Positions 3,179 to 41,425 of a stretch of 64,000 nucleotides of DNA are shown piece after piece. Within the stretch, counting starts at the first letter, position 1; each line of letters opens with the position of its first letter. The translations under genes were made by a program, and so were the position numbers. The notes below the pieces were generated by a model. The model was given only the letters and a program-made list of their open reading frames with translations, made no database searches and was not told where the DNA came from. This DNA comes from Candidatus Binatia bacterium (lineage in GTDB: Bacteria > Desulfobacterota > Binatia > HRBIN30 > BPIQ01): assembly GCA_026004195.1 (NCBI GenBank), contig BPIQ01000001.1:653871-717870 (forward strand), read 5' to 3'.

Positions 3179-3598
3179 ATGCTCGCGAGGAAAAGACAGG
3201 GACATCCGCAAAGCGGGTTCACGATCGTGGAGCTCATGGTGAACCTCACGATGGTGGCGATCCTCTTCACCATCGCGCTGTCGGTCTACGACCATTATCG
3301 CAAGCGCGCCTACGAAGCCGCGGCGATCCACTACATGCGCTCGTGGGTTCCCGCGCAGGAACTCTACCTGCAGACCTTCGGTCACTATGCGGACGCGGAC
3401 GAGCAGCTCCAGACCGACCTCGGCGTCGTGCGAGTGCCCACGAACATTCCCTACACGTTCTCCATCGACAGCACGAGCCAGGAGACCGAGCGCTGGTGGG
3501 GACGCGGGCACCCGAGGCAGAGCGGCCTGCGCTACTTCTACATCGACGAGACGGGTGTGGTCCTGTCCTCGCTCTCGGGACCACCTACCCCGCCGTGA
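3179..3598 (+). CDS. type IV pilin-like protein (prepilin-type N-terminal cleavage/methylation domain)
   Basis: Short basic leader MLARKRQGHPQSG, then FTIVELMVNLTMVAILFTIAL, a class III signal peptide with G|FTxxE. 139 aa. Local GC is lower than the surroundings. Confidence 0.75.
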   Translation: MLARKRQGHPQSGFTIVELMVNLTMVAILFTIALSVYDHYRKRAYEAAAIHYMRSWVPAQELYLQTFGHYADADEQLQTDLGVVRVPTNIPYTFSIDSTSQETERWWGRGHPRQSGLRYFYIDETGVVLSSLSGPPTPP

Positions 3599-27277: not shown

Positions 27278-30200
27278 GTGGCTCGAAGAACGACACCGCG
27301 AACGCATGCGAGCCCCCGGATGTTTCCCCGCGTTCTTTCCCGCGCGGTGCTTCCGGCCTTCCTGGGCATGCTGCTCTTCGCGCCTCCCGCCCTCTGCCAA
27401 CCGCGCGGCATCCAGCAGCTCAACGGATTCGAGGGCGGCGGCGCCGGCGACTACACGACGCAAGGGGCTACGGTCGTCGAGCCCGAGCTCTTTCCCCCTC
27501 CGGACCCTCCTCCGGAGGGTGTCTTCGGTTTCGTGGCCCGGAGCGGCCGCTTCGTCCTGCGAACGCGCAGCGTATCGGGCGAGGTGTCCTACGCGGAAGC
27601 GGCGCTTCCCGTCGCCGCGAACCAGGTGAGCGACGGAATCTGGGCCTGCTTCCGAACCCTTCCGTCCTCCCCGCGGCGCATCCGGAGCTGGTGGGCCGGT
27701 ACGACCCCGGTCTTCGAACTTTGGCTCGAGCCCGACGGTAGGGTCCGGCTCCAGGCAGGAGCTCGGTCCGAAATTTCCACGACGGCGATGGCCGACTGCA
27801 CCTTCGACTTCACGCACTACGAAGTTCTTTACTTCGCGAACGGCTCCCTCACGCTCCGGGTCGGGGGGTTCGTGGAAGCCACCCTGTTCCCGGGCCTCTC
27901 CTCGCCCGTCGACCGAACGAGAATCGGACCCGACGAGCCCTCCGGCGGGAGCCTCGAACTTTTCTGGGACGACCACACGTTCGGCCAGAGCTCGCTGTTC
28001 CACGGCGAGCTCCGTATCGCTTCCCTTCACCCCACGCAGGACGGCCAGTTCGCCGAGTGGACGGCGCAAACCAACCGCACGGGCCCGCCCTGCGACGACC
28101 TGGGCCTTTTCGGCTGCGTCCTCGAGCGCCCCCCGGACGGGGAAGAGACCCTCGTTTCGTCGGACGCGGCCGGCACGAGGGCTTCTTTCTGCCACGAAAC
28201 GACGGCGGACCTTTTTCTTTTCGGCGAAATGCTCGCCGTCAAAACACTGGCCATCGCGCGAGGAGATCCCGGCGCGGGGTTCGAGCTCGGGCTCGAGCTC
28301 GACTCGCCGGCTTGCGGGGGAACCTCGGGCGGCGTGCCGGTGGCGAGTCCGTTCTCCCCCGATTCGTCCTTCCGGGGATTCGCACGCGTGGACGAGGTGA
28401 ATCCCCTGGGGCCGGCTCCCTGGCAAGGCATCGACATCGACCGGACGGAGATCTTTCTCGCCCAAGCCTCGGACGGCGCTCGGGTAGAGGTCACGCAGGT
28501 CTTCCAGGAGGTGGCGTACGACACGACGGGGTTCCCCACGCCCACACTCTCGCCCTCGCCGACGCCGACCGTCACGCCCAGTCCCACGAAAACGCGCACG
28601 TTCACGCCCACCGCCACACCGAGCGTCACTCCCACCGTCACGCGCACCCCGACGCCCAGCCCGACCCCCACCGTTTCGCCCACACCCACTCCATCCCGGA
28701 CCCCTACTCCTTCCCCGACTCCTACGCCCACCCCCACCGCCACGCCGTCTCGGACCCCGACCCTGACCGCCACTCCGAGCCCGACGCCCACGCGGACACC
28801 TACCCCGACTCCCACCACGAGCCCGACGCCGTCCTTCTCACCCTCCTCCACGCCTTCGCCCCTTCCGACGCCTACCGGGACGTTCACACCGAGCGCCACG
28901 CCCAGCCACACGCCTTCTCCGTCTCCCACGGCGACCTTCACGCCCACTCCGCTTCCGACCGCCACTCCCACGAGCCCGTTGCGAGCTCTCACGCACCTGA
29001 ACGGCTTCGAGGCCGGGTCGCGGGAAGACTACAGGGTCGGTGCAGGCGTACCGACCGCCACTTCGCTGGCCCGAAGCGGCCTCTGGGGCATGGGGACCGC
29101 GTCGGCGGGAGCGCCGGAATATCTCTTTTTCGAGCTCGCATCGCCCACGGGTGTCTTCACGGACGGCTTCTGGGCATGCCGTCGCACGTCTTCCCTTTCC
29201 GCCTCGCGCCGGATCCGGTCGTGGCTTTCGAGCCCCGTGATCGCCGTGGTCTCGCTCTACCTCGAACCCGACTTCCGGGTCTCCGTCCGGGTCGAGGGCA
29301 CACCGCTCGGGACGAGCAGCACGCCTATGAGCGCGTGCCCGAACTTCACGCGCTACGAGCTCCAGTACGAAGCGGGAGGGTTCGTCCGCCTGCGCGTCGA
29401 CGGTAGCCAGGAGGTCGAAGCCACCCACGCTTCGACGGCCACGATCGTGCGAAGCCACATCGGACCCGATACGACCGGCTCACCCGTCGACCTCGTCTGG
29501 GACGATCATACCTTCTCTCCTTCGCTCGTCTTCCCCGGAGAGCTGCAAATCCGCGGGCTCGCGGTCACGACCGACGAACAGATCACGGGGTGGGGCAGCG
29601 GAGGCGGGTGCGGCGTGCCGGGGCTCTTCACCTGCGTTCGAGACGTTCCGCCGAACGAATCCCTGTTCGTACAAACCACCCTCGACGGAGCGAGAATCGC
29701 CTTCTGCCACGAGCCGACGAGCGAGGCGGGCATTTTCGGTTCGATTCTCGCCCTCAAAGTCACGGCTCACGCACGGCGCGAGAGCCAGTCGGTCCAGAGC
29801 CCGATGAACCTTTTCGTCCGTACCGACGCTCCGGCGTGCGGAGGAGCGGATCCGCAGAGACACGACGCGCCGGCGAATTTCGTGCCGGAGGTGTTCTACC
29901 AGGGCTTCGGCCGGATTCTCGAGACGAATCCGCGAACGGGTCTCCCGTGGACGGGGGCGGAAATCGACCGCACTTCGGTGGGCGTGACCCACTTCAACGA
30001 CAACGAAGCGGCACGTCTCGCTCAGGTACACGTCTCGGTCGCGTTCGACACGACGGGATTCCCGTCTCCCACGGCGACCCCCAGTCGAACCCCGACTCCC
30101 ACACCCACGCCGCGGCCCCCCACGCCCACCGCGAGCTTCTCGCCGACGAACTCACCCACGCCCACGCGCACGGCGTCTTCGACACCCACCCCCAACCCCA

Positions 30201-31759
30201 CCTCGACGGCGACGGCCACGTTTTCCGCCACACCTTCCCGAACTCCCACGAACACACGCACGCCGACCATCACCCGAACTCCCACGAACACGCGCACGCC
30301 GACGAGGACCCCCACCCCACCGCCCACCTCGGAGATCACCGCGACTCCTTCGGCGACTCTCACGGCCACGCCGAGCCCCGCTCCCACGACTCCCACCCCG
30401 ACGCCCGAATCTCCTACGCGCACCCCCACCGCTTCCGCGACTTCCACTCCTGCTTCCGCCTCTCCGACGCCGACAGCGAGCGAGGTCCCGACCGGCTCGC
30501 CGACCACGACGCCGGCCGAGGGCACGCCGACACCGACCGCCCCCACGGCGGCGCCGACTCCGAGCCCCACTGCATCCGCTTCCCCGTCTCCCACGGCCAC
30601 CGCGAGCTCGCTTCCCACTCCCGGCGTCGATCTACTCATTCTGAGCGGCCCCGAAACCCAGCCCTGCGTCTTCGACGTCGCGGCGAGTCTCATCGGCTTC
30701 GGTAACGCCTCGACACCGCTTTCGCGAATCGGGAACGACCCGCTCTTTTCCGACCCCACGGAGCTACGCTCCCGATACCGCGCCATCGTCGTCCCGGGGG
30801 GCCTGTCTCCGGCGGATTTCACGCAACTCGCGCGCCTGGTCGCTCCCGGAGGAGTTCTTTCGGAATTCGCGCGGCTCGGTGGCTCGCTCGTCCTCGACCT
30901 CCGGGGGTCGTTGCCCGACCCGCCGCCCGACGCCCTGGCTCCACGGGGCGTGAACGCGGACCTGAGCCGCACGCACGCGACGGGTGTCATCGTCGCCCCT
31001 TCCCATCCTTACTTCACGGGCTTCGGCTTCGCCGGAAGGATGCTCGGACCGGATGACTTCGAGGGCTGGGACCCCGTCGACCAGGGAAGCCTCACCGACA
31101 TCGGCGATGCGACGATCCTCGTCGGCAACGAAAGCCTGGCTCCCTCGATGATCGAGTACGCCTGGGGAAGCGGAAAGGTGATCGCCACGACCCTCAACTT
31201 CTGTGCGCAGGGCGCGAACGGGCCCGACCGTCCGGCCCTCGAGAATCTCCTGCGCTACGCGAGGTTCTTTTCCGGCACGGCCCTCACCCCGGCTCCTACG
31301 TTCACACCGACCTGGACTCCCACCGACACCCCGGTACCGCCCACTCCGACACGGACGCCCACCGGGCGGGCCACGGCCACGCCGACCCCTTCGCCGTCCC
31401 CCACCACCACCTTGCCGACGCTGCGTCCCGGAGACATCGACCGGAACGGGAAGCTCGAAGAGGCCGATCTGCGACTTCTCCTGCGGCTGCTCTTCGAGTT
31501 CAGCGGGATACCGGTTTCCGCCTCCGGTGCTCCGCGCGAAGCGGACGCGAACTTCGACGACTTTCTCACCGCGGCGGACGTCGTGGGATGGCTCGCCGCC
31601 CGCGCGGCCGAAAACGAGCGCCCGCCGTTCCAGGACAACGCCGGACCCGCCCTGCAAATCCCCTACCGCAAGGCCCTCCGCGGGAACGCGATCCGACCTC
31701 GCCCCTACGGCGCGAAGAGTGGTTCGCGCTCCTTCGGGGGTCCCGCGGCTTCCACGTAG
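27278..31759 (+). CDS. giant secreted multidomain protein with tandem duplicated ~400-aa domains, Pro/Thr linkers and a C-terminal dockerin-like module
   Basis: 1493 aa with an N-terminal signal peptide (alternative start at MFPRVL). Domains A (aa ~45-430) and B (~565-985) share collinear blocks, including LNGFE, WACxRT..SxRRIRSW and [11 protein letters not shown]. Thr/Pro-rich linkers are encoded at about 28.54-28.98, 30.06-30.61 and 31.29-31.41 kb. The tail [14 protein letters not shown] + [12 protein letters not shown] forms two EF-hand-like dockerin loops. Confidence 0.8.
28540..28985. repeat. low-complexity coding repeat (Pro/Thr linker 1)
   Basis: Reiterated ACGCC/CCCAC/CCGAC triplets encode (T/S)P repeats. 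They create spurious ORFs on both strands. Confidence 0.7.
30060..30615. repeat. low-complexity coding repeat (Pro/Thr linker 2)
   Basis: Same PT-codon reiteration, including near-duplicate CGAACTCCCACGAACAC units (TPTNTRTPT). Confidence 0.7.
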
Positions 31760-32109
31760 GCGAGAAGGGCGCGCTCGAGCTCGCGCACGCTCGCGAGCAC
31801 GCGGTCCCGCAGCTCCGGGTGCTCCTCGGTCTTCGAACCCAGCGCGTACTGCCCGGTCACGATCGTCCTGTAGCGTTCCTCGCCCTCGTCGGCGAAATCC
31901 GTCGCCTCGAAAACGACCATCGTGTCCCCGTCCGGAGAGTTCCGCACCGTGATCGTGCTGATGAGACGGATCCGCGGGACGGGCTCCGCCGTGGGCTTCG
32001 GAGTCGGTTCGTACCATCCGAGCTCCTGCACCACGGGTGGCGGAGCGACGGCCCAGACGAAGGGTAGGAGAGAAAAAACCCAGAGGAGCGTCCACTTCGA
32101 GAACCGCAT
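31705..32109 (-). CDS. small secreted hypothetical protein
   Basis: Internal ATG gives signal peptide [22 protein letters not shown]. 134 aa. Its 3' end overlaps the giant gene 3' end by about 55 bp on the opposite strand. Confidence 0.5.
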
Positions 32110-32172
32110 TCGTTTCCTCCAAGAGCCACGCGCGACCTTATCGGCACGCCGGGACCTTTGCAAAGCCGGGTT

Positions 32173-33528
32173 TCACGGGGCGCGGCAGTTCGGGTCGGGG
32201 TGGAGACAGGGAGCGCGGACGACGATCTCGCGTTCGTTGCCGACGTTCCCCCCGACGTCACGCAAACGAACCTTGAGACGCGTGTCGCCGGGCGGGAAAG
32301 CCATCTCGAGTGCCACCCGTCCGCAGAACTGGACGGTGGAGGCGGGGTCGATCGTGGCGAAGCGGCCGAGCGGGTCCAGCGTGCAGGGCTCCGCTGGCTC
32401 CTTGGCCTCGAAGCGGCAGCCGAAGTCGTTGAGTGCATCCGAAACCGCCGGGTTTCCCTCGAAATCGGGGGGATCGACACCGGGAACTCCTCCCGTGGGT
32501 CTCGGGGTCGGAAGGCTGGGCTCGCACACGAGAGGGTTTCCGTCACCGAGCTTTTTCGAGGAAAGGATCTGGATGTCGGGACGACCTCCGGGGTTGAAAA
32601 CCTGCCGGCCCACGCGGAGCCCGCTCGTGCCCCTGCGGCCTTCGACCACGAGGAGGAAACCACTCGGAACCGGGCGGCAGAAAACGGGGATCCCCCCCTC
32701 GGTCACCTCGATCGGCGCGTCGCAGGGGTCGAACACTCCGTCGTCCCGCCTGGCGACGAAGGCCGTCACCTGCGGTCCGAAGGGCAGCGGTTCGGTGGGG
32801 GTGCGCGTCTGCGTGGCCGTCGGTGTGCGGGACGGCGAGGGCGTGGGGGTCGGAGTCGGTGTTCGCGTGGGCGTCCGGGTCAGGGACGGCGTGAACGTCA
32901 CGGTGGCAGTAGGGACGGGGGTGCGCGTCCGCGTGGGCGACGGCGTGAAGGTGGGGATTCTCGTTTCCGTCGGGGTCCGGGTCGCCGTTCCGGTTCGCGT
33001 GGGCGTGGGAGTGCGGGTGGGAGTGGCCGAGTGCGTGGGCGTGGGAGTACGGGTGGGAGTCCTCGAAGAGGTCACCGTGGGGGTAGGGCTCGCGGCGCGG
33101 GTCGCGGAGGGCGTGGCGGTCGGGGACCATGTGACGGTGCCGGTCGGGGTCGGAGTCGGAGTCCGGGAGAAGAATTCCGTCGGGGAGCCGGTCGGCGTGA
33201 CCGACGGAGATCCGGAGGGCGGAGTGCCGGTCGGAGTCTCCGTGGGAGACACGGAAACGGTCGCGGAAAAAGTGGGAGAAGGTGGGGTAGGCGAACTTCC
33301 GAAGAGGAAAAGGACCGCCACGAGGTCGGCGGCACCGACTCTGCCGTCGCCGTCGACGTCGGCTCCGGGACATCCTCCTTCTGCGAAGATCCCCTCGACG
33401 AGCGCCGGAAGGTCGGCGTCGTCGAGAAACCCGTCGCAGTTCGCGTCACCGGGAAAACCCGGCGCGGTCGCGAACGCCTGCGTGTGGCAGAGGAGACCGA
33501 GCCCCACAAGGAAGAGCGGAACCCGCAA
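32173..33528 (-). CDS. secreted protein with N-terminal dockerin-like double Ca-loop module, Pro/Thr linker and C-terminal Cys-containing domain
   Basis: Signal peptide [33 protein letters not shown] and [13 protein letters not shown] match DxNxDGxxxxxD loops. A PT-rich linker of about 175 aa precedes a roughly 200-aa C-terminal domain with 8 Cys. Confidence 0.75.
32780..33306. repeat. low-complexity coding repeat (Pro/Thr linker in dockerin-like protein)
   Basis: Reiterated GGNGTNGG on plus, encoding PT on the minus strand. Causes multiple artefactual overlapping ORFs. Confidence 0.7.
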
Positions 33529-33549
33529 GGGACGGCCTCTCTCGCTCGT

Positions 33550-34848
33550 TCAGCGATCCGCGAACGTGAACATCGTGATGCCGTCGCCCAGAATGGGCAG
33601 GTGGAGCTGCGGAGCCGCGAAGACGAGCCTACCGGGGCCACCTTCTCGCTCGAAGTCCGTGCAGGAAAAGTTCTCCCCGCGGAGCTCGAACTCGAGAGGT
33701 GGAACCCCGACGAGGGCGTTCGGATTCTCGACTCGTCCGAAAGACCGTTCGGTGGTGAACGCCAGAGCCAGAGAAATTCCCGTCCCCTCGTCCCCACAGG
33801 GCAGAGCGGATTCCTGCGAGAGCTCGACGGGAAACCCCTGGAGACCCAGTTGCGGAAGCGGCGCGATCACCATGGCCCCGGGGGAGACGTCGCGGTCGTC
33901 GGGCTGCACGACCCCCAAGGGGCCGTTGCAGACACCCGGATGCGGAGCACCCGCTCCCTCCACGAGACCTCCCGCCGCGAGGCAATCCTGTTCCGTAAAA
34001 CCGTCCACCCCCACCGTACCGAGCACGTGGTTCTGGACGAGCCCGGCGGAGAAAGACGCGCTCGGGCGGCACGAGAGAAGGATCGCGTCCCGGTCCACGA
34101 CCGTCTCGCCGTTCCGCTCTCCGCGGGCGACCGCACGCACCACCTGCCCTGCAGGACGACCGCAAGAGAGAAGCCCTGCCGCCGAGACCGGAGCCATCGG
34201 CTTCAGGCAAAGGACGAGACCGGCCAAGGCTCGGAGGTCGGCGAACAGGTATTCCGACGTGTCCACGATGTCCACGACGGCCACACCCGTCTGCGGGTCG
34301 GTCGGGCCCGCATGGAACACGATCTCGCCCTGGAAGGGCCCGAGGGCGAGACCGTTGACGCCGAACGACGAGCCACCGGGCGAGAGGACGAAACGCCGGG
34401 TGCCGATCTCGGGGCGGAATTGCCCGCGCAACGGCACCTCCACCGGAACGGGATCCGTGCAAGCCGATTCCCCGGCCGGCAGGAGCTCGCGGAGTGCGGC
34501 CGAGAGGCTCCGCGCGACACTCCCCCCTCGCAACCGGACGGCGGAAATTTCCACACCCGTCGGGTCGCAATCGGGAAGGTCCGGGTCGGGTGTCGCGAGA
34601 CACACCGAGAGCGAGAACGTGCACTTCCCGTCGACGGCTCCGTCCTCGTCGCACTCGGGATCGCCGTCGGCGCAGTCGACGACCCGCGATCCCGGTGCCC
34701 TCGGCTCCACTCCTCCCCACGTGAGGAGGCAATCCGTCGAACGTCGACCGCCGCCTTCGATTTCGCAGTTCTCGGGACAATCGGCCCCGGCGAGAACGGG
34801 CAAAAGGCAGAAAACGAGCGCCGAGGAAACGATGCCGAATCTTTTCAT
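33550..34848 (-). CDS. secreted cysteine-rich hypothetical protein
   Basis: Internal ATG with GGGGAAAG RBS. Signal peptide [22 protein letters not shown], then a Cys/Asp-rich N-terminal segment ([11 protein letters not shown]...[19 protein letters not shown]). 432 aa. No recognisable family. Confidence 0.6.
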
Positions 34849-34990
34849 GCGCTTTCCCCCCGGAAGACTCGCGGAGAGCGCAAGATAGAGTCTTCCGGGC
34901 GACGAATCAACGCACGGAAAACCGGCCCGGCCCTGCGACGTCGAATTCCTTTCCCGAACGATCGATCCGACCGCCGAACGGCACGCGCTC

Positions 34991-35710
34991 TCAGGGCCCC
35001 AGGATGCGGAGCTCCACGCGGCGGTTCCGCGCCCTTCCTTCGGGCGTGTCGTTCGACGCGATCGGTCTCGACTCGCCGTATCCGACCACCGAGAGCCGCG
35101 CCGGGTCGATGCCGGCCGCGACGAGATAACGGTAGACCGCTCGGGCACGGCGTTCGGAGAGCTTCTGGTTGTAAGCCTCGCTCGCGATCGAATCCGTGTG
35201 TCCTTCGATCACGACCTTGACGTCCGGATTCTCGCGGAGGATGGCCACGGCCTCCTCGAGCACGGGCCGGGCATCGGGACGGATATCGCTCTTGTCGTAG
35301 TCGAACTCGACCCCGCGCAGGATGATCTTTTTCTTGACGGGCCGGGGGGTCGGGGTCGGGGGTGGGAGCGTGGGGGTCGGTGTCGGTGTCGGAGCTTCCG
35401 GATCGAACACCATGTGGCCCACGAGGCCACAGAGCACGAGACCCACGGCCCCGCCGATCAGCGCCCCTTTCCACTGCTCCTTGTCGTCGCAAACGACGAC
35501 CGGGGGCTCCCCTTCGACGTTGAGCGCCGTGCATCCCGGCCGGTTGTTCTGGATGACCCACCCGGTTCCCGCCCCGACGGCGCCGCACGCGAGCGCCGGG
35601 ACGAGCGTGCCCTTCCCCCACGGCTTGCGCGCCATTCGCCGTGCGAAGTCGCATCCGCAGAGAACGAGCAGGCACGCGCAAGCGGCCACCAACGTTCGGC
35701 TTCTGAGCAT
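34991..35710 (-). CDS. OmpA-family protein (membrane N-terminal part + PT spacer + OmpA C-terminal peptidoglycan-binding domain)
   Basis: C-terminal ...FDYDKSDIRPDARPVLEE...NRRVELRI is the OmpA_C motif. A short PT spacer ([21 protein letters not shown]) links to a Gly-rich membrane N-terminal part. Confidence 0.8.
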   Translation of the reverse strand: MLRSRTLVAACACLLVLCGCDFARRMARKPWGKGTLVPALACGAVGAGTGWVIQNNRPGCTALNVEGEPPVVVCDDKEQWKGALIGGAVGLVLCGLVGHMVFDPEAPTPTPTPTLPPPTPTPRPVKKKIILRGVEFDYDKSDIRPDARPVLEEAVAILRENPDVKVVIEGHTDSIASEAYNQKLSERRARAVYRYLVAAGIDPARLSVVGYGESRPIASNDTPEGRARNRRVELRILGP

Positions 35711-37367: not shown

Positions 37368-38558
37368 GTGCGCGTCTTCGGGTCGAAGGAAACGCTCGGG
37401 TTCCTCGCCTGCCTTTTCGTCCTGTTCCCCGCCCCCTCTTACGCGGAGCCCTACCTCGCCCTTCGGGCCGGCGAGCCCTGCGACGCCTGTCATACCAACA
37501 TGACCGGCGGTGGCAAGCGGACGGACCTCGTAGCCATGCACGCGCGCGAGATTCTCCGCTACCCGCGCTGGCTCGGAACGTTCTTCGCCGACGCGGACCG
37601 CTTCACGGGAGAGCTTCACCCCCGCGTGTCCCTCGGCGCGGATCTCCGGACTTCCTACACCGCCCTCTTCCAGGACGAACCCGACGAACGAGGGCTCGTC
37701 GAGAACAACACGGCCTTTCGGGACTTTCACGAAAGCCGCCTCGACGTGACGCAGGCCACGGGCTTCCTCGAGCTCGAACTTTTCACGGACCGGCTGGCCC
37801 TCTACGTCGACCAGCGCCTTTCGCCCACGACGGACAACCGCGAAGCGTTCGCGTTGCTGCGGGGGCTTCCCTGGAACGGCTTTCTCAAGGTGGGACGGAT
37901 GTTCCTGCCCTACGGCCTCCAGCTCCAGGACGACCGGGCTTTTGTCCGCGACGGCTACGAAGGCGTCTCGCCACGAACCGGCTTCAGTTTCGACGCGAGC
38001 CAGGGTGCACTGGAGCTCGGAATCCGACCCGGCCCGTTCCGTTTCGTCACGGCGGTGTCCGAGGGCCGCGGCGGGGACAGAGACGTGCAGTGGACGGGCA
38101 CCGGGAGCCTCTGGCTCGGCGAACTCCCGTGGGTCGACCACGCGATGCTCGGAGGATCCTTTTCCCTCGACGACGCGGGCGACGATCCGACCTGGCTTCT
38201 CGGCGCGTTCGGGGGTCTCTCCCGGGGCCCCGTCGTTCTGCTGGCCGAAGTCGACTTCCGCAGCGAGAAGGGAGAGACGACCGGCGGGGGACGACACGGC
38301 ACTTTTCTCGCTTATGCCGAGGCGAACTATCTCCTGTTCGGCTGGCTCAACGCCAAGCTCGCCTTCGATTACGCGGACGACGACGGAGACCTCCGGCAAC
38401 GGGCCGACGACAGCGAGAATCGGCTGAGTGTCGGCTTCGAGCCTTTTCTCTCCCGTTTTCTCCAGCTCCGCTTCTTCTACCGCGTGGGAAACGGCGTGAG
38501 GTCGAGACCCGAACACAATCGCGACGAGCTTCTGGCCGAGGCGCACCTCTTCTTCTGA
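37368..38558 (+). CDS. putative outer-membrane β-barrel protein with N-terminal CxxCH motif
   Basis: Signal peptide MRVFGSKETLGFLACLFVLFPAPSYA, then EPCDACH near the mature N-terminus. Alternating amphipathic strands and a C-terminal ...HLFF aromatic terminus. 396 aa. Confidence 0.6.
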   Translation: MRVFGSKETLGFLACLFVLFPAPSYAEPYLALRAGEPCDACHTNMTGGGKRTDLVAMHAREILRYPRWLGTFFADADRFTGELHPRVSLGADLRTSYTALFQDEPDERGLVENNTAFRDFHESRLDVTQATGFLELELFTDRLALYVDQRLSPTTDNREAFALLRGLPWNGFLKVGRMFLPYGLQLQDDRAFVRDGYEGVSPRTGFSFDASQGALELGIRPGPFRFVTAVSEGRGGDRDVQWTGTGSLWLGELPWVDHAMLGGSFSLDDAGDDPTWLLGAFGGLSRGPVVLLAEVDFRSEKGETTGGGRHGTFLAYAEANYLLFGWLNAKLAFDYADDDGDLRQRADDSENRLSVGFEPFLSRFLQLRFFYRVGNGVRSRPEHNRDELLAEAHLFF

Positions 38559-38579: not shown

Positions 38580-39017
38580 TCACGAATCGCCGGAGTCGGC
38601 ACGCGGAGCCCCGTCGAGGATCCAACCGACGATCAGAGCGATCTCGTCCTCGGAAAGCGGGGCTTCCCCGAGCGGCATGCGGCTGCCCTCGCCCGCCCGG
38701 GGCCCCCCGAGCTTGCGGACGAGAAAGCTTCGCTCCGGCTCGAACGGTGCCACCCGAAGATCTCCGGCCGCCCGCGCGGCGGGATTGTCCGGCTCGACGC
38801 CCACGAGCTCGTCGAAGGCGGCAGGCCCGGAAAGGTCGAGCCCGCCGGCCCGCGTCTGCGGAGAGTGGCAGGGCCCGGAGGTACAGCGCCGGTCGAAGAT
38901 CTCGCGCTGGATGCGTCCGAAGTCTCCACCGGTCGTGAACGCGACGGGCCCGTCACCGGCACAACCGAAAAGGCACAGGGCGGCCGCGCACCCGATCCGG
39001 CGGAGAAAGGCCCCCAC
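38580..39017 (-). CDS. lipoprotein with PSCyt1-like (Planctomycete-type cytochrome c) domain
   Basis: Lipobox LFGC, then IQREIFDRRCTSGPCHS...AGGLDLS...MPLGEAPLSEDEIALIVGWILDGA, matching the PSCyt1 layout but with CX4CH instead of CxxCH. 145 aa. Confidence 0.55.
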   Translation of the reverse strand: MGAFLRRIGCAAALCLFGCAGDGPVAFTTGGDFGRIQREIFDRRCTSGPCHSPQTRAGGLDLSGPAAFDELVGVEPDNPAARAAGDLRVAPFEPERSFLVRKLGGPRAGEGSRMPLGEAPLSEDEIALIVGWILDGAPRADSGDS

Positions 39018-39056: not shown

Positions 39057-39422
39057 TCAACGAGAACGGGCTTCGAGCACCGTGAGAGCGCTCATCCCGT
39101 GCTTCGTATGCTTTTCGCCCTTGACGACGGCGTTCTCGCCCGCGAGTTTTTTCGCTTCCTCGTACGGCTCGGAGTTCGCGTGGTCGTCGATGAGGAGATA
39201 GAGTTCGCCGTTTTCCGTGAGAAGCCCGATCGGTTTACCCCCTTTGGCGCACATCTTCGCGCAGCTCGCGTGTCCGGCACCCCTCTTACCGTGGCCGAGA
39301 TAACAGGCGAGGTCGACGATTTCCCCTTCGACGGTGACCGGCTCCGCGAAGACCCTGCCGGTCCAGAAAAACACGAGGCCCGACACGAGAGAAAGGAGAA
39401 CCGCCTGTCGGAACGTTCTCAT
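39057..39422 (-). CDS. small secreted Cys/His-containing hypothetical protein
   Basis: Internal ATG gives signal peptide MRTFRQAVLLSLVSGLVFFWTGRVFA. The mature ~95 aa carries CYLGHG...HASCAKMCAKGG. Confidence 0.45.
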   Translation of the reverse strand: MRTFRQAVLLSLVSGLVFFWTGRVFAEPVTVEGEIVDLACYLGHGKRGAGHASCAKMCAKGGKPIGLLTENGELYLLIDDHANSEPYEEAKKLAGENAVVKGEKHTKHGMSALTVLEARSR

Positions 39423-39473
39423 ACCCACCGCTCCCTTGGACAACGATGCCGGGCCCTAGTAAACTCTCCCAAC

Positions 39474-40679
39474 GTGGCCTTGTCAATCGGAGAGGGCGCA
39501 AGCGGCGCGGGAGTGTCCGCGAAGCTCCCGTTCGCCGTGCTCTCCCGCGCGGAGGGGGTCTCGCACGGAAACGAATCGGCGGAAGAGACCGGCGGCTACA
39601 CGTTCCGGGAACAGGCCTTTTTCGTCTACGGGACGGGGCTCGCCATCGGACTCCACCTGGCCCTCGTCCATGTCTTCATCTTCCGAACGTGGGCCGTCCT
39701 CCCGATCACGATCGCGGCCACGTTTCTCTTCTCGAGCGCCACGCTCGGCCTCTGGCGGTGGGTTTTCCCCCGTCTCGCTCACCTCCCGTCGCGCCCGCGC
39801 CTTCTCGCGCAGGCGGGCATTTCCGTGGGCGTTTTCGCGGTGACTTCCGTCCTCGTGACCGAGGGGAACGCGGCGCTCACCGCCGCCCGCTCCCTCTTCC
39901 AGCCCTACACGGGAGGGGACCGCGTGGTGACCATCCCGTCGTACATGATCCGCTGGGCCCCGCTCGTCTACACGCTCATCCCGATCGCGCCGACGGCCAT
40001 CATGTGCGTCATCGGCTTCAACCATCACTGGTGGCGCATTTTCCGTCTCGAGGGGCGGCAGAGAGAACTCCAGGCCTGGGCCACCTCGGCCCAGCTCGCG
40101 GCCCTGCGCGCGCAGATGAACCCGCACTTTTTCTTCAACTCGCTCAACTCGATCGCACAGTTGATCTCCTCGGACCCCCGCCAGGCGGAGCGGTGCGTGG
40201 AGCAGCTCGCCGAGGTCTACCGCTACCTCCTTCGCCGCTCGGACAAGGACTTCGTGCCCCTGACGGACGAACTCAAGGTCACGCAGGCTTACCTCGAAAT
40301 CGAGCGGGCCCGGTTCGGCGACGAACTCCGGGTCCAGTGGCACGTCGATCCGGGTGCCGGCGAGACGAGCGTCCCCGCCTTCGTGCTGCAGCCGCTCGTC
40401 GAAAACGCCGTGCGGCACGGGGTGTCGGGAAAACTCGGCGGTGGGGTCGTGCGCGTCGAAGCCCTGCTCCGCAACGGCGACCTCGAGCTCCGAGTGTCGG
40501 ACACCGGCGCAGGGATCGCCGACTCGTCGTCCGTTTTCGAAAGCGGCGTGGCCCTGCGGAACATCCGCGAGCGGCTCGTGAACCTCTACGGCCCGGCGTA
40601 CGCCCCCGAAGTCCGGAGTCGGCCCGGAGAGGGCACCTCCGTGCGCATCCGAATCCCCGTGACGGAGACGCGGTCGTGA
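39474..40679 (+). CDS. sensor histidine kinase, LytS/YehU family
   Basis: Polytopic N-terminal membrane region, then NPHFFFNSLNSI (His_kinase PF06580) and HATPase_c (VENAVRHG...DTGAGI). GTG start chosen downstream of the opposite-strand gene. Start is uncertain. Confidence 0.75.
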   Translation: MALSIGEGASGAGVSAKLPFAVLSRAEGVSHGNESAEETGGYTFREQAFFVYGTGLAIGLHLALVHVFIFRTWAVLPITIAATFLFSSATLGLWRWVFPRLAHLPSRPRLLAQAGISVGVFAVTSVLVTEGNAALTAARSLFQPYTGGDRVVTIPSYMIRWAPLVYTLIPIAPTAIMCVIGFNHHWWRIFRLEGRQRELQAWATSAQLAALRAQMNPHFFFNSLNSIAQLISSDPRQAERCVEQLAEVYRYLLRRSDKDFVPLTDELKVTQAYLEIERARFGDELRVQWHVDPGAGETSVPAFVLQPLVENAVRHGVSGKLGGGVVRVEALLRNGDLELRVSDTGAGIADSSSVFESGVALRNIRERLVNLYGPAYAPEVRSRPGEGTSVRIRIPVTETRS

Positions 40680-41425
40680 TCCGCGCTGTCGTGGTCGACG
40701 ACGAAAAGCTCGCCCGGGACCGTCTCGTCGGCTTTCTCCGGGAAGCCGGCGACGTGGCCATCGAAGGCGAGGCGAGAAACGGGCCCGAAGCGCTACGGTT
40801 GATCGAGGAGAAGGACCCGGACCTCGTGCTTCTCGACGTGCAGATGCCGGGCATGAACGGGTTCGAAGTCCTGCGCCGGCTCCAGAAGCGTCCGCACGTC
40901 GTCTTCGCCACGGCGTACGACGAGTACGCGCTCCGGGCCTTCGAGGTGGAAGCGGTCGACTACCTCCTCAAGCCGGTCTCGCGAGACCGGCTTCTCGAGG
41001 CACTCCGGCGCGTACGGGCGAGGCTCGAATCCCATGCGCCGCCGCCCGACTTCGCCGCGCTCGTGCGGAGGTTCGAAGCCTCTCGCCCCCGCTACCTCGA
41101 ACGCATCCCCGTACATCGCGGCAGGCAGATCCTGCTCCTGCCGGTCGAGACCGTTTTCTGGTTCGCCGTCGAGTTCCGGCTCGTCTACGCGCACACGGCG
41201 ACGGACCGCTACATGACGAACTTCACGCTACGGGAACTCGAAGAGAAGCTCGACCCGGACGTTTTCTTCCGGGCACACAAATCCAGGCTCGTGAACCTCG
41301 AGCAGGTGCGCGCCATTCGACGATCGCTGGGCCGCTACCGACTCGTCATGAAGGACGAGAAAGCCACGGAGCTCGAGCTCAGCCGGACCCAGGCCCGGGT
41401 GCTCCGCGCCCGGCTCGGCTGGTAG
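40676..41425 (+). CDS. LytTR-family response regulator
   Basis: REC domain (VVVDDEKLARD...DLVLLDVQMPGMNGFEV) plus LytTR DNA-binding domain. Its GTG overlaps the kinase stop (GTGA). Confidence 0.8.
   Translation: MIRAVVVDDEKLARDRLVGFLREAGDVAIEGEARNGPEALRLIEEKDPDLVLLDVQMPGMNGFEVLRRLQKRPHVVFATAYDEYALRAFEVEAVDYLLKPVSRDRLLEALRRVRARLESHAPPPDFAALVRRFEASRPRYLERIPVHRGRQILLLPVETVFWFAVEFRLVYAHTATDRYMTNFTLRELEEKLDPDVFFRAHKSRLVNLEQVRAIRRSLGRYRLVMKDEKATELELSRTQARVLRARLGW

Follow-up and report, generated by a model that had tools for sequence, protein, structure and literature searches.

A conserved gene cluster for dockerin-bearing, PT-linked secreted proteins in Binatia

Outside the cellulolytic bacteria, dockerin-like modules are a common finding, and in many cases no cohesin lies close by. 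Peer et al., in 2009, reportedly found non-cellulosomal dockerin-like and cohesin-like modules to be spread across bacteria and archaea; the dockerin-like ones are said to sit on non-cellulolytic proteins, often with no detectable cohesin in the genome. To our knowledge, few binding targets have been assigned to these non-cellulolytic modules. In Omnitrophota, dockerin-type giant proteins of more than 30,000 amino acids (aa), with many dockerin and TSP3 repeats and membrane anchors, have been proposed to serve in attachment, not in cellulose degradation (10.1101/2023.11.21.568195). Here, a cluster of genes for secreted proteins, two of which carry dockerin-like modules, is described in a 64,000-nucleotide stretch of DNA from Candidatus Binatia bacterium (contig BPIQ01000001.1, positions 653,871 to 717,870). 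This whole stretch is referred to as the window, and its numbering is used throughout. The cluster is real and conserved. Non-cellulosomal dockerins without cohesins were already known, and it is the Binatia cluster that is new; a full-text literature search found no paper mentioning both Binatia and dockerin.

Two dockerin-like modules in a conserved cluster

The cluster is formed by a gene for a giant secreted protein on the plus strand (27278-31759, 1,493 aa) and, convergent with it on the minus strand, the genes for protein X (33550-34848, 432 aa, with 17 Cys and 28 Asp), protein DocY (32173-33528, 451 aa) and a small secreted protein (31705-32109, 134 aa). All four products carry Sec signal peptides. 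Upstream of X on the minus strand is a gene for an OmpA-family peptidoglycan-binding lipoprotein (34991-35710, 239 aa), and with it all four minus-strand genes for secreted proteins listed in the original prediction are present in their places. The intergenic gaps are 142 bp between OmpA and X, 21 bp between X and DocY, and 63 bp between DocY and the small gene. This spacing is operon-like, and X, DocY and the small gene are probably one operon.

In the giant, the signal peptide is followed by domain A (27404-28531), a proline- and threonine-rich (PT) linker (28514-29005), domain B (29000-30052), a second PT linker (30038-30643), domain C (30614-31285), a third PT linker (31268-31456) and a C-terminal dockerin (aa 1384-1445, nt 31427-31612). 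DocY has the reverse arrangement, with its dockerin at the N-terminus after the signal peptide (aa 25-78, nt 33295-33456), then a PT linker of about 175 aa (aa 76-249, nt ~32782-33303) and a Cys-rich, Ig-like domain Y (aa 250-440, nt 32209-32781; 8 Cys in the C-terminal domain). The giant continues past its dockerin with a 48-aa tail (31613-31759), which overlaps the 3' end of the small gene by 55 bp. Such a tail is absent from the orthologues in L004 and L007 and from P0133 and P0136 (L and P numbers denote the contigs and proteins compared here), in which the stop codon follows immediately after the dockerin. The tail may thus be the result of a recent stop-codon loss, or it may be genuine.

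By sequence reading, both dockerin-like modules consist of two tandem F-hand repeats with 12-residue Ca2+-binding loops, about 30 residues apart, where an F-hand is defined as a loop with D/N at positions 1, 3 and 5 and D/E at position 12, followed by a helix. A six-frame search of the 64-kb window gives exactly two occurrences of this double-loop motif, which both fall in this locus and lie about 2 kb apart; in 100 Markov-simulated sequences it was found 0 times. The window copies fall below the gathering cut-off of the Pfam family Dockerin_1 (PF00404, 22.9 bits), scoring 12.8 and 10.9 bits within the full-length proteins, and 19.8 (giant) and 16.8 bits (DocY) as isolated modules. The modules at the same position in orthologues, however, have Dockerin_1 as their top family and score above the cut-off, both in DocY (30.3, 27.6, 37.2 and 38.2 bits) and in the giant (29.3, 47.9 and 41.1 bits). 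Among 17 related modules, PF00404 matches nine (best E 7.7e-10) and EF-hand_1 matches 12, and a profile of the related modules finds EF-hand proteins together with the solved dockerins 4fl4, 2mte, 1daq and 4cj0 (E ~1e-9). Since the orthologous modules match Dockerin_1 best, PF00404 matches nine of the 17 and the profile recovers solved dockerins, the loops do not fail against dockerin and EF-hand hidden Markov models. The dockerin model has helices at residues 39-48 and 66-77, and can be superposed at 1.9-2.0 Å (29% identity) on 2ccl_B and 4fl4_A, both solved dockerins. Judged by these profile matches and by the predicted structure, both modules are genuine F-hand pairs of the Dockerin_1 family, predicted to bind Ca2+, and the claim that the locus holds two dockerin-like modules, one C-terminal and one N-terminal, is upheld.

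The core arrangement of X, DocY and small gene facing the giant has counterparts in eight further contigs from Binatia, reaching to a HisS identity of about 60% (L001, a Logan assembly of run DRR290133, carries the same DNA as the window). In L002-L007 the gene after X is DocY, and DocY, the small gene and a convergent giant are found together in L004, L007 and L017. L002 and L003 show purM, OmpA, X and the start of DocY, where the contig ends inside PT-linker DNA. In L004 the order is histidine kinase, LytTR response regulator, X, DocY, small gene and the convergent 3' end of a giant (domain C, PT linker and dockerin), and L005 has the LytTR response regulator, X and DocY before the contig stops within the DocY PT linker. 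L006 and L007 share this order of LytTR regulator, X and DocY, and L007 also contains a complete giant gene (A-PT-B-PT-C-PT-dockerin) with hisS and aspS behind it, an order shared with the window. DocY is followed by the small gene in L017 and L018, with the convergent giant visible in L017. The small gene always lies between DocY and the convergent giant gene.

HisS of the window and of L007 are only 60% identical; thus, the gene order has survived deep divergence, and the genes form a conserved unit, in support of the original prediction. Identity to the orthologues is 31-49% for X, 40-44% for Y, 35-37% for the giant and 44-50% for the small protein (44-46% in L004 and L007, 46-50% in L017 and L018). 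Every complete giant orthologue examined has the same layout and ends in a dockerin-like module.

Metagenome assemblies tend to break in PT-linker DNA, and the contigs L001, L002, L003 and L006 all terminate there. The same DNA gives rise to long spurious open reading frames, both in alternative frames and on the other strand, with Gly/Val-rich or Arg-rich translations (28027-28992 and 30022-30990 on the minus strand, 31922-34888 and 32158-35220 on the plus strand).

Candidate partners and cargo domains

A scan of 35 protein sequences from the window, comprising the cluster, its neighbours and other signal-peptide-bearing proteins, detected no cohesin (PF00963). This agrees with the original prediction, in which the locus had no recognisable cohesin. 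The Cys-rich protein, X, or domain A/B had there been put forward as a possible binding partner. X is 100% identical to 'hypothetical protein KatS3mg076_0609'. Behind its signal peptide comes a Cys-rich N-module (aa ~23-146, nt ~34411-34782, motif 'CPxxC..GGG..DC...C.DGDP.CD.DG..C.F..C...DP.LP.C'), which is followed by a beta-barrel domain rich in disulfides (aa 147-432, nt 33553-34410). The C-terminal ~285 residues belong to a family of at least 48 proteins, among which there are no precomputed Pfam domains, save one EF-hand match on P0023. In the model of the barrel, the predicted local distance difference test score (pLDDT) is above 90 over most of aa 147-432, with low-confidence loops at ~233-262, and a Foldseek search against the PDB gave no match at E <= 1e-3. 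On this model we read the domain as a soluble disulfide-rich beta-barrel without a close solved relative. Domain Y, as modelled, is a generic Ig-like sandwich. Neither the X barrel nor Y is cohesin-like in these models, and the case for the Cys-rich protein as binding partner gains no support from its barrel. Sequence and profile searches of X, Y, A/B, C and the small protein against PDB sequences gave nothing significant.

The X N-module gave a low-confidence model and has no Pfam family. It is also found at the N-terminus of PQQ_2 beta-propeller proteins in metagenome-assembled genomes (MAGs) of Binatia and Myxococcales (L011-L015) and, going by this distribution, is a mobile module. The PQQ_2 protein of L012 bears its own C-terminal dockerin-like module, and no dockerin genes are found near the N-module proteins of L011 and L013-L015. 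These neighbourhoods speak neither for nor against a pairing of N-module and dockerin.

Domains A and B of the giant are an internal duplication, 40% identical. Their family comprises 359 representative clusters at E <= 1e-3 in an exhaustive HMMER search of representatives. A word-indexed homology search returned nothing for a giant query made by joining A and C without the linkers, not even the query itself, and also missed the PT-linker proteins; its negatives for linker-rich proteins are therefore untrustworthy. In a sample of 60 A/B relatives, the phage families of unknown function phrog_6368 and phrog_2448 were matched in 35 and 22, respectively, and Laminin_G_3 in three (best E 3.3e-6), and these matches support a putative role of A and B as binding heads. 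One relative, P0155, matches a 'minor tail protein' of Streptomyces phage Hiyaa. Domain A of the window itself matches a Mesorhizobium phage protein (E 4e-4); window A and B reach only E ~2e-3 against phrog_6368 and phrog_2448, and have no match in Pfam, including LamG (PF13385). On the strength of these relatives, the A/B units (~380 aa) are provisionally classed as LamG-type and related to phage proteins. The family is dominated by stand-alone proteins of ~340-410 aa that match phrog_6368 and phrog_2448, and there are no phage genes near the giant within the window.

Domain C has no match in Pfam or the PDB. A resemblance to GATase1/ThuA-like alpha/beta domains was considered for it and is not claimed, given the lack of a Pfam match. 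The small protein has a Pro-rich segment behind its signal peptide and an alpha/beta domain of ~85 aa with the conserved motif FEATD.AD.G. It has no match in Pfam, NCBIfam, PHROG or the PDB; a TetR_C_31 hit (E 0.0022) is below the cut-off and was treated as spurious, as was a match of phrog_15511 to PT linker.

Proposed docking, its alternatives and the neighbouring genes

Tentatively, and with somewhat less than an even chance of being right, we infer that the two dockerins serve in Ca2+-dependent docking. They would act as pegs by which the giant and DocY, both long-linker proteins, are held on a shared non-cohesin receptor. As binding domains, the giant's LamG-type heads would be projected on PT spacers, and the result would be an extracellular, tethered, adhesin-like assembly anchored at the cell surface. 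Local candidates for the receptor would be the small protein and the co-operonic X, above all the Cys-rich N-module of the latter, and the cluster may be regulated by a neighbouring LytS/LytTR pair. The narrower claim that dockerin-fold modules have a new receptor, other than a cohesin, encoded by the cluster itself, be it the X N-module, the X barrel or the small protein, appears improbable.

Several observations weigh against such docking. Most of them bear on the main alternative, which is possible, if somewhat less probable, and in which there is no locus-specific assembly and the cluster proteins act independently. The dockerin and PT linker would then be a tag, a lineage-wide device of the secretome that retains proteins on envelope glycan or lipopolysaccharide, forms a Ca2+-stabilised cap or binds a receptor encoded elsewhere, and the genes would lie side by side owing to conserved synteny and to an operon of unknown function. 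A dockerin-like module with a PT linker is indeed carried, in Binatia and related MAGs, by at least four unrelated cargo families, namely X paralogues (16 of 48 by a strict regular expression), Y paralogues, giants and a PQQ propeller. In many X paralogues, a four-cysteine dockerin-like module and PT linker take the place of the N-module.

Two classes of module can be distinguished, one with four cysteines and a Glu at loop position 12 ('CxGDCNgDGxVtvnELvxxVniaLG...C..D.N.DG.vtvnELv.AVnnAL.GCP') and the other a 'GDANCDG...C.GAD' class with Asp at 12. The four-cysteine class is widespread on Binatia secreted proteins (for example, paralogues P0005-P0044 and P0127-P0135, and L009:3920 and L012:12098). 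At the C-terminus of some giant orthologues it replaces the Asp-type dockerin, so that giants bear either class at the same position, which makes a tightly co-evolving partner within the locus less likely. As the tag is found on unrelated families, the partner may be encoded elsewhere or be a non-protein, and with a tag so general, the case for a docking partner encoded at the locus itself is weakened. For the same reason, the shared PT-linker architecture, which the original prediction took as a sign of assembly at this locus, provides no evidence for it, the tag being lineage-wide. Nor did the models of the X barrel and Y, or the cohesin scan of 35 proteins, bring out a partner-like fold in the cluster, and the dockerin copies of the window are the most degenerate of the set as well as being under the Pfam cut-off. 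Finally, hisS and aspS are syntenic too, so part of the conservation of the cluster may be mere genome stability.

Independent action is less easily reconciled with the two dockerin-bearing genes having stayed face to face over deep divergence, nor would it lead one to expect that the only two modules in 64 kb lie so close together, or that DocY has kept the 'GDANCDG...C.GAD' subtype in all seven loci in which its N-terminus is visible.

A further alternative, which seems unlikely, places the proteins in a periplasmic or envelope-associated system that LytS/LytTR would control and that might act in envelope remodelling or stress; the OmpA lipoprotein would tie it to peptidoglycan, and there would be no extracellular surface structure. 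The linkage of the LytS/LytTR pair to the cluster and the position of OmpA next to X in L001-L003 speak in its favour. By inspection only, no outer-membrane translocation or surface-sorting signal was noticed at the C-termini of the cluster proteins, which could be periplasmic; this also counts against the extracellular docking proposed above. An SLT/LysM transglycosylase and a class A penicillin-binding protein are encoded elsewhere in the window. The three PT linkers of the giant, with ~430 residues in total, would on the other hand be hard to fit in the periplasm.

The OmpA protein matches PF00691 with E 2.4e-28 (98.8 bits, cut-off 27.2 bits) and also has Gly-zipper matches; its N-terminus, MLRSRTLVAACACLLVLCGC, fits a lipobox by reading, and a PT spacer of 38 aa (35422-35309) precedes the OmpA_C domain. 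The best NCBIfam match is the YiaD glycine-zipper/OmpA lipoprotein family, and as the score of 144 bits is under the equivalog cut-off of 175 bits, the assignment is at family level. The OmpA gene lies directly upstream of X in L001-L003 only, the subclade of the window, and in L004, L006 and L007 its place is taken by the LytTR regulator. It is therefore rejected as a core component, and its suggested part as peptidoglycan anchor of the complex gains no support. By its distribution it is a lineage-specific neighbour outside the conserved core, a point that also tells against a periplasmic system built on it.

The LytS-type histidine kinase (39477-40679, plus strand, PF06580/PF02518) and the LytTR response regulator (40676-41425, plus strand, PF00072/PF04397) have orthologues linked to the cluster in L002, L004, L006 and L007 (51-62% identical; response regulator partial in L002). 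The pair is directly upstream of X and co-oriented with it in L004, L006 and L007, and a response regulator precedes X in L005. With L005 and with L001, which represents the window's own genome, the linkage extends to six other loci, and it is seen wherever a contig reaches far enough. From this proximity, and proximity only, the pair may regulate the cluster.

The remaining alternative, a cellulosome-like complex in which dockerin-bearing enzymes assemble on a scaffoldin to degrade polysaccharides, is rejected as highly implausible: Dockerin_1 modules with PT linkers are typical of cellulosomal enzymes and LamG-type domains could bind carbohydrate, but the cluster proteins contain no glycoside hydrolase, polysaccharide lyase, carbohydrate esterase or carbohydrate-binding module (Pfam/NCBIfam, E <= 1), no cohesin or scaffoldin was found in the window scan, and the host lineage, Binatia, is one that we take to be diderm.

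Three further conserved genes lie around the LytS/LytTR block. Between purM and the block is a protein of 395-396 aa (37368-38558, plus strand; L001:2874-4064, L002:3220-4407, L003:1237-2424, L006:75-971), with a CxxCH motif (CDACH) near its N-terminus, a C-terminal '...HLFF' and no Pfam match. The '...HLFF' end resembles an outer-membrane beta-barrel signal, and the protein may be a haem-bearing outer-membrane barrel. Beside the kinase, two small secreted Cys-containing proteins are conserved, also with no Pfam match (38580-39017 and 39057-39443, minus strand; L006:1011-2006 and 2031-2429; L007:7277-7645). One has 145 aa with 'FDRRCTSGPCHSP' and the other 128 aa with 'CYLGHGKRGAGHASCAKMCAKGG'; in L006 the first protein has two copies of its domain, separated by a PT linker. 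A type IV pilin/pseudopilin-like gene (3179-3598, plus strand) has the N-terminal methylation motif PF07963 at 20.8 bits, just under the 21.2-bit cut-off, and lies 28 kb from the cluster.

Comparison with known systems

With two dockerin proteins and three or four candidate partners, the locus makes the question of what orphan dockerins bind a tractable one, and the orthologue sets, from a divergent and uncultured class, allow predicted interfaces to be cross-checked. If the cluster does encode a non-cohesin receptor, a second type of Ca2+-dependent docking pair would be defined, in use throughout the dockerin/PT-linker-tagged secretome of Binatia and related lineages that are expected to be diderm. 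If the proteins act independently, the locus is an example of a modular, PT-linked Binatia secretome. In addition, it exposes sizeable families without Pfam annotation, namely the X barrel, Y, the Cys-rich N-module, the small protein and domain C.

Compared with the type I dockerins of cellulosomal enzymes, such as Clostridium thermocellum Xyn10B (2ccl_B) and a GH9 enzyme (4fl4_A), the modules have the same duplicated F-hand of ~22 residues, the same 12-residue DxDxDG-type Ca2+ loop with Asp at position 12, and two main helices, and are likewise joined to their cargo by a PT-rich linker. They differ in the lack of a cohesin, a scaffoldin or carbohydrate-active enzyme cargo, in the N-terminal position of one module, in a conserved Cys pair in the DocY module, in an 8-residue insertion between the repeats of the giant module, in the degeneracy of the window copies and in a host lineage presumed to be diderm. 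From the non-cellulosomal dockerins of Peer et al., the locus is set apart as a compact, deeply conserved cluster with few candidate partners. The Binatia and Omnitrophota giants are both large proteins with dockerin/EF-hand Ca2+-binding modules, those of Omnitrophota being extracellular; here, however, there is one dockerin per protein, with PT linkers and other cargo domains. The OmpA protein shares the lipoprotein signal, glycine zipper and OmpA_C domain of YiaD/Pal-type lipoproteins, and differs in scoring under the equivalog cut-offs and in its PT spacer. Domains A and B of the giant appear to be of the same sequence family as the phage LamG-type proteins (phrog_6368, phrog_2448 and Hiyaa). 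The units in the giant, in contrast, are cellular, tandem-duplicated, PT-spaced and fused to a dockerin, and in the giant a LamG-type unit known otherwise from phage proteins is put to use by a cell.

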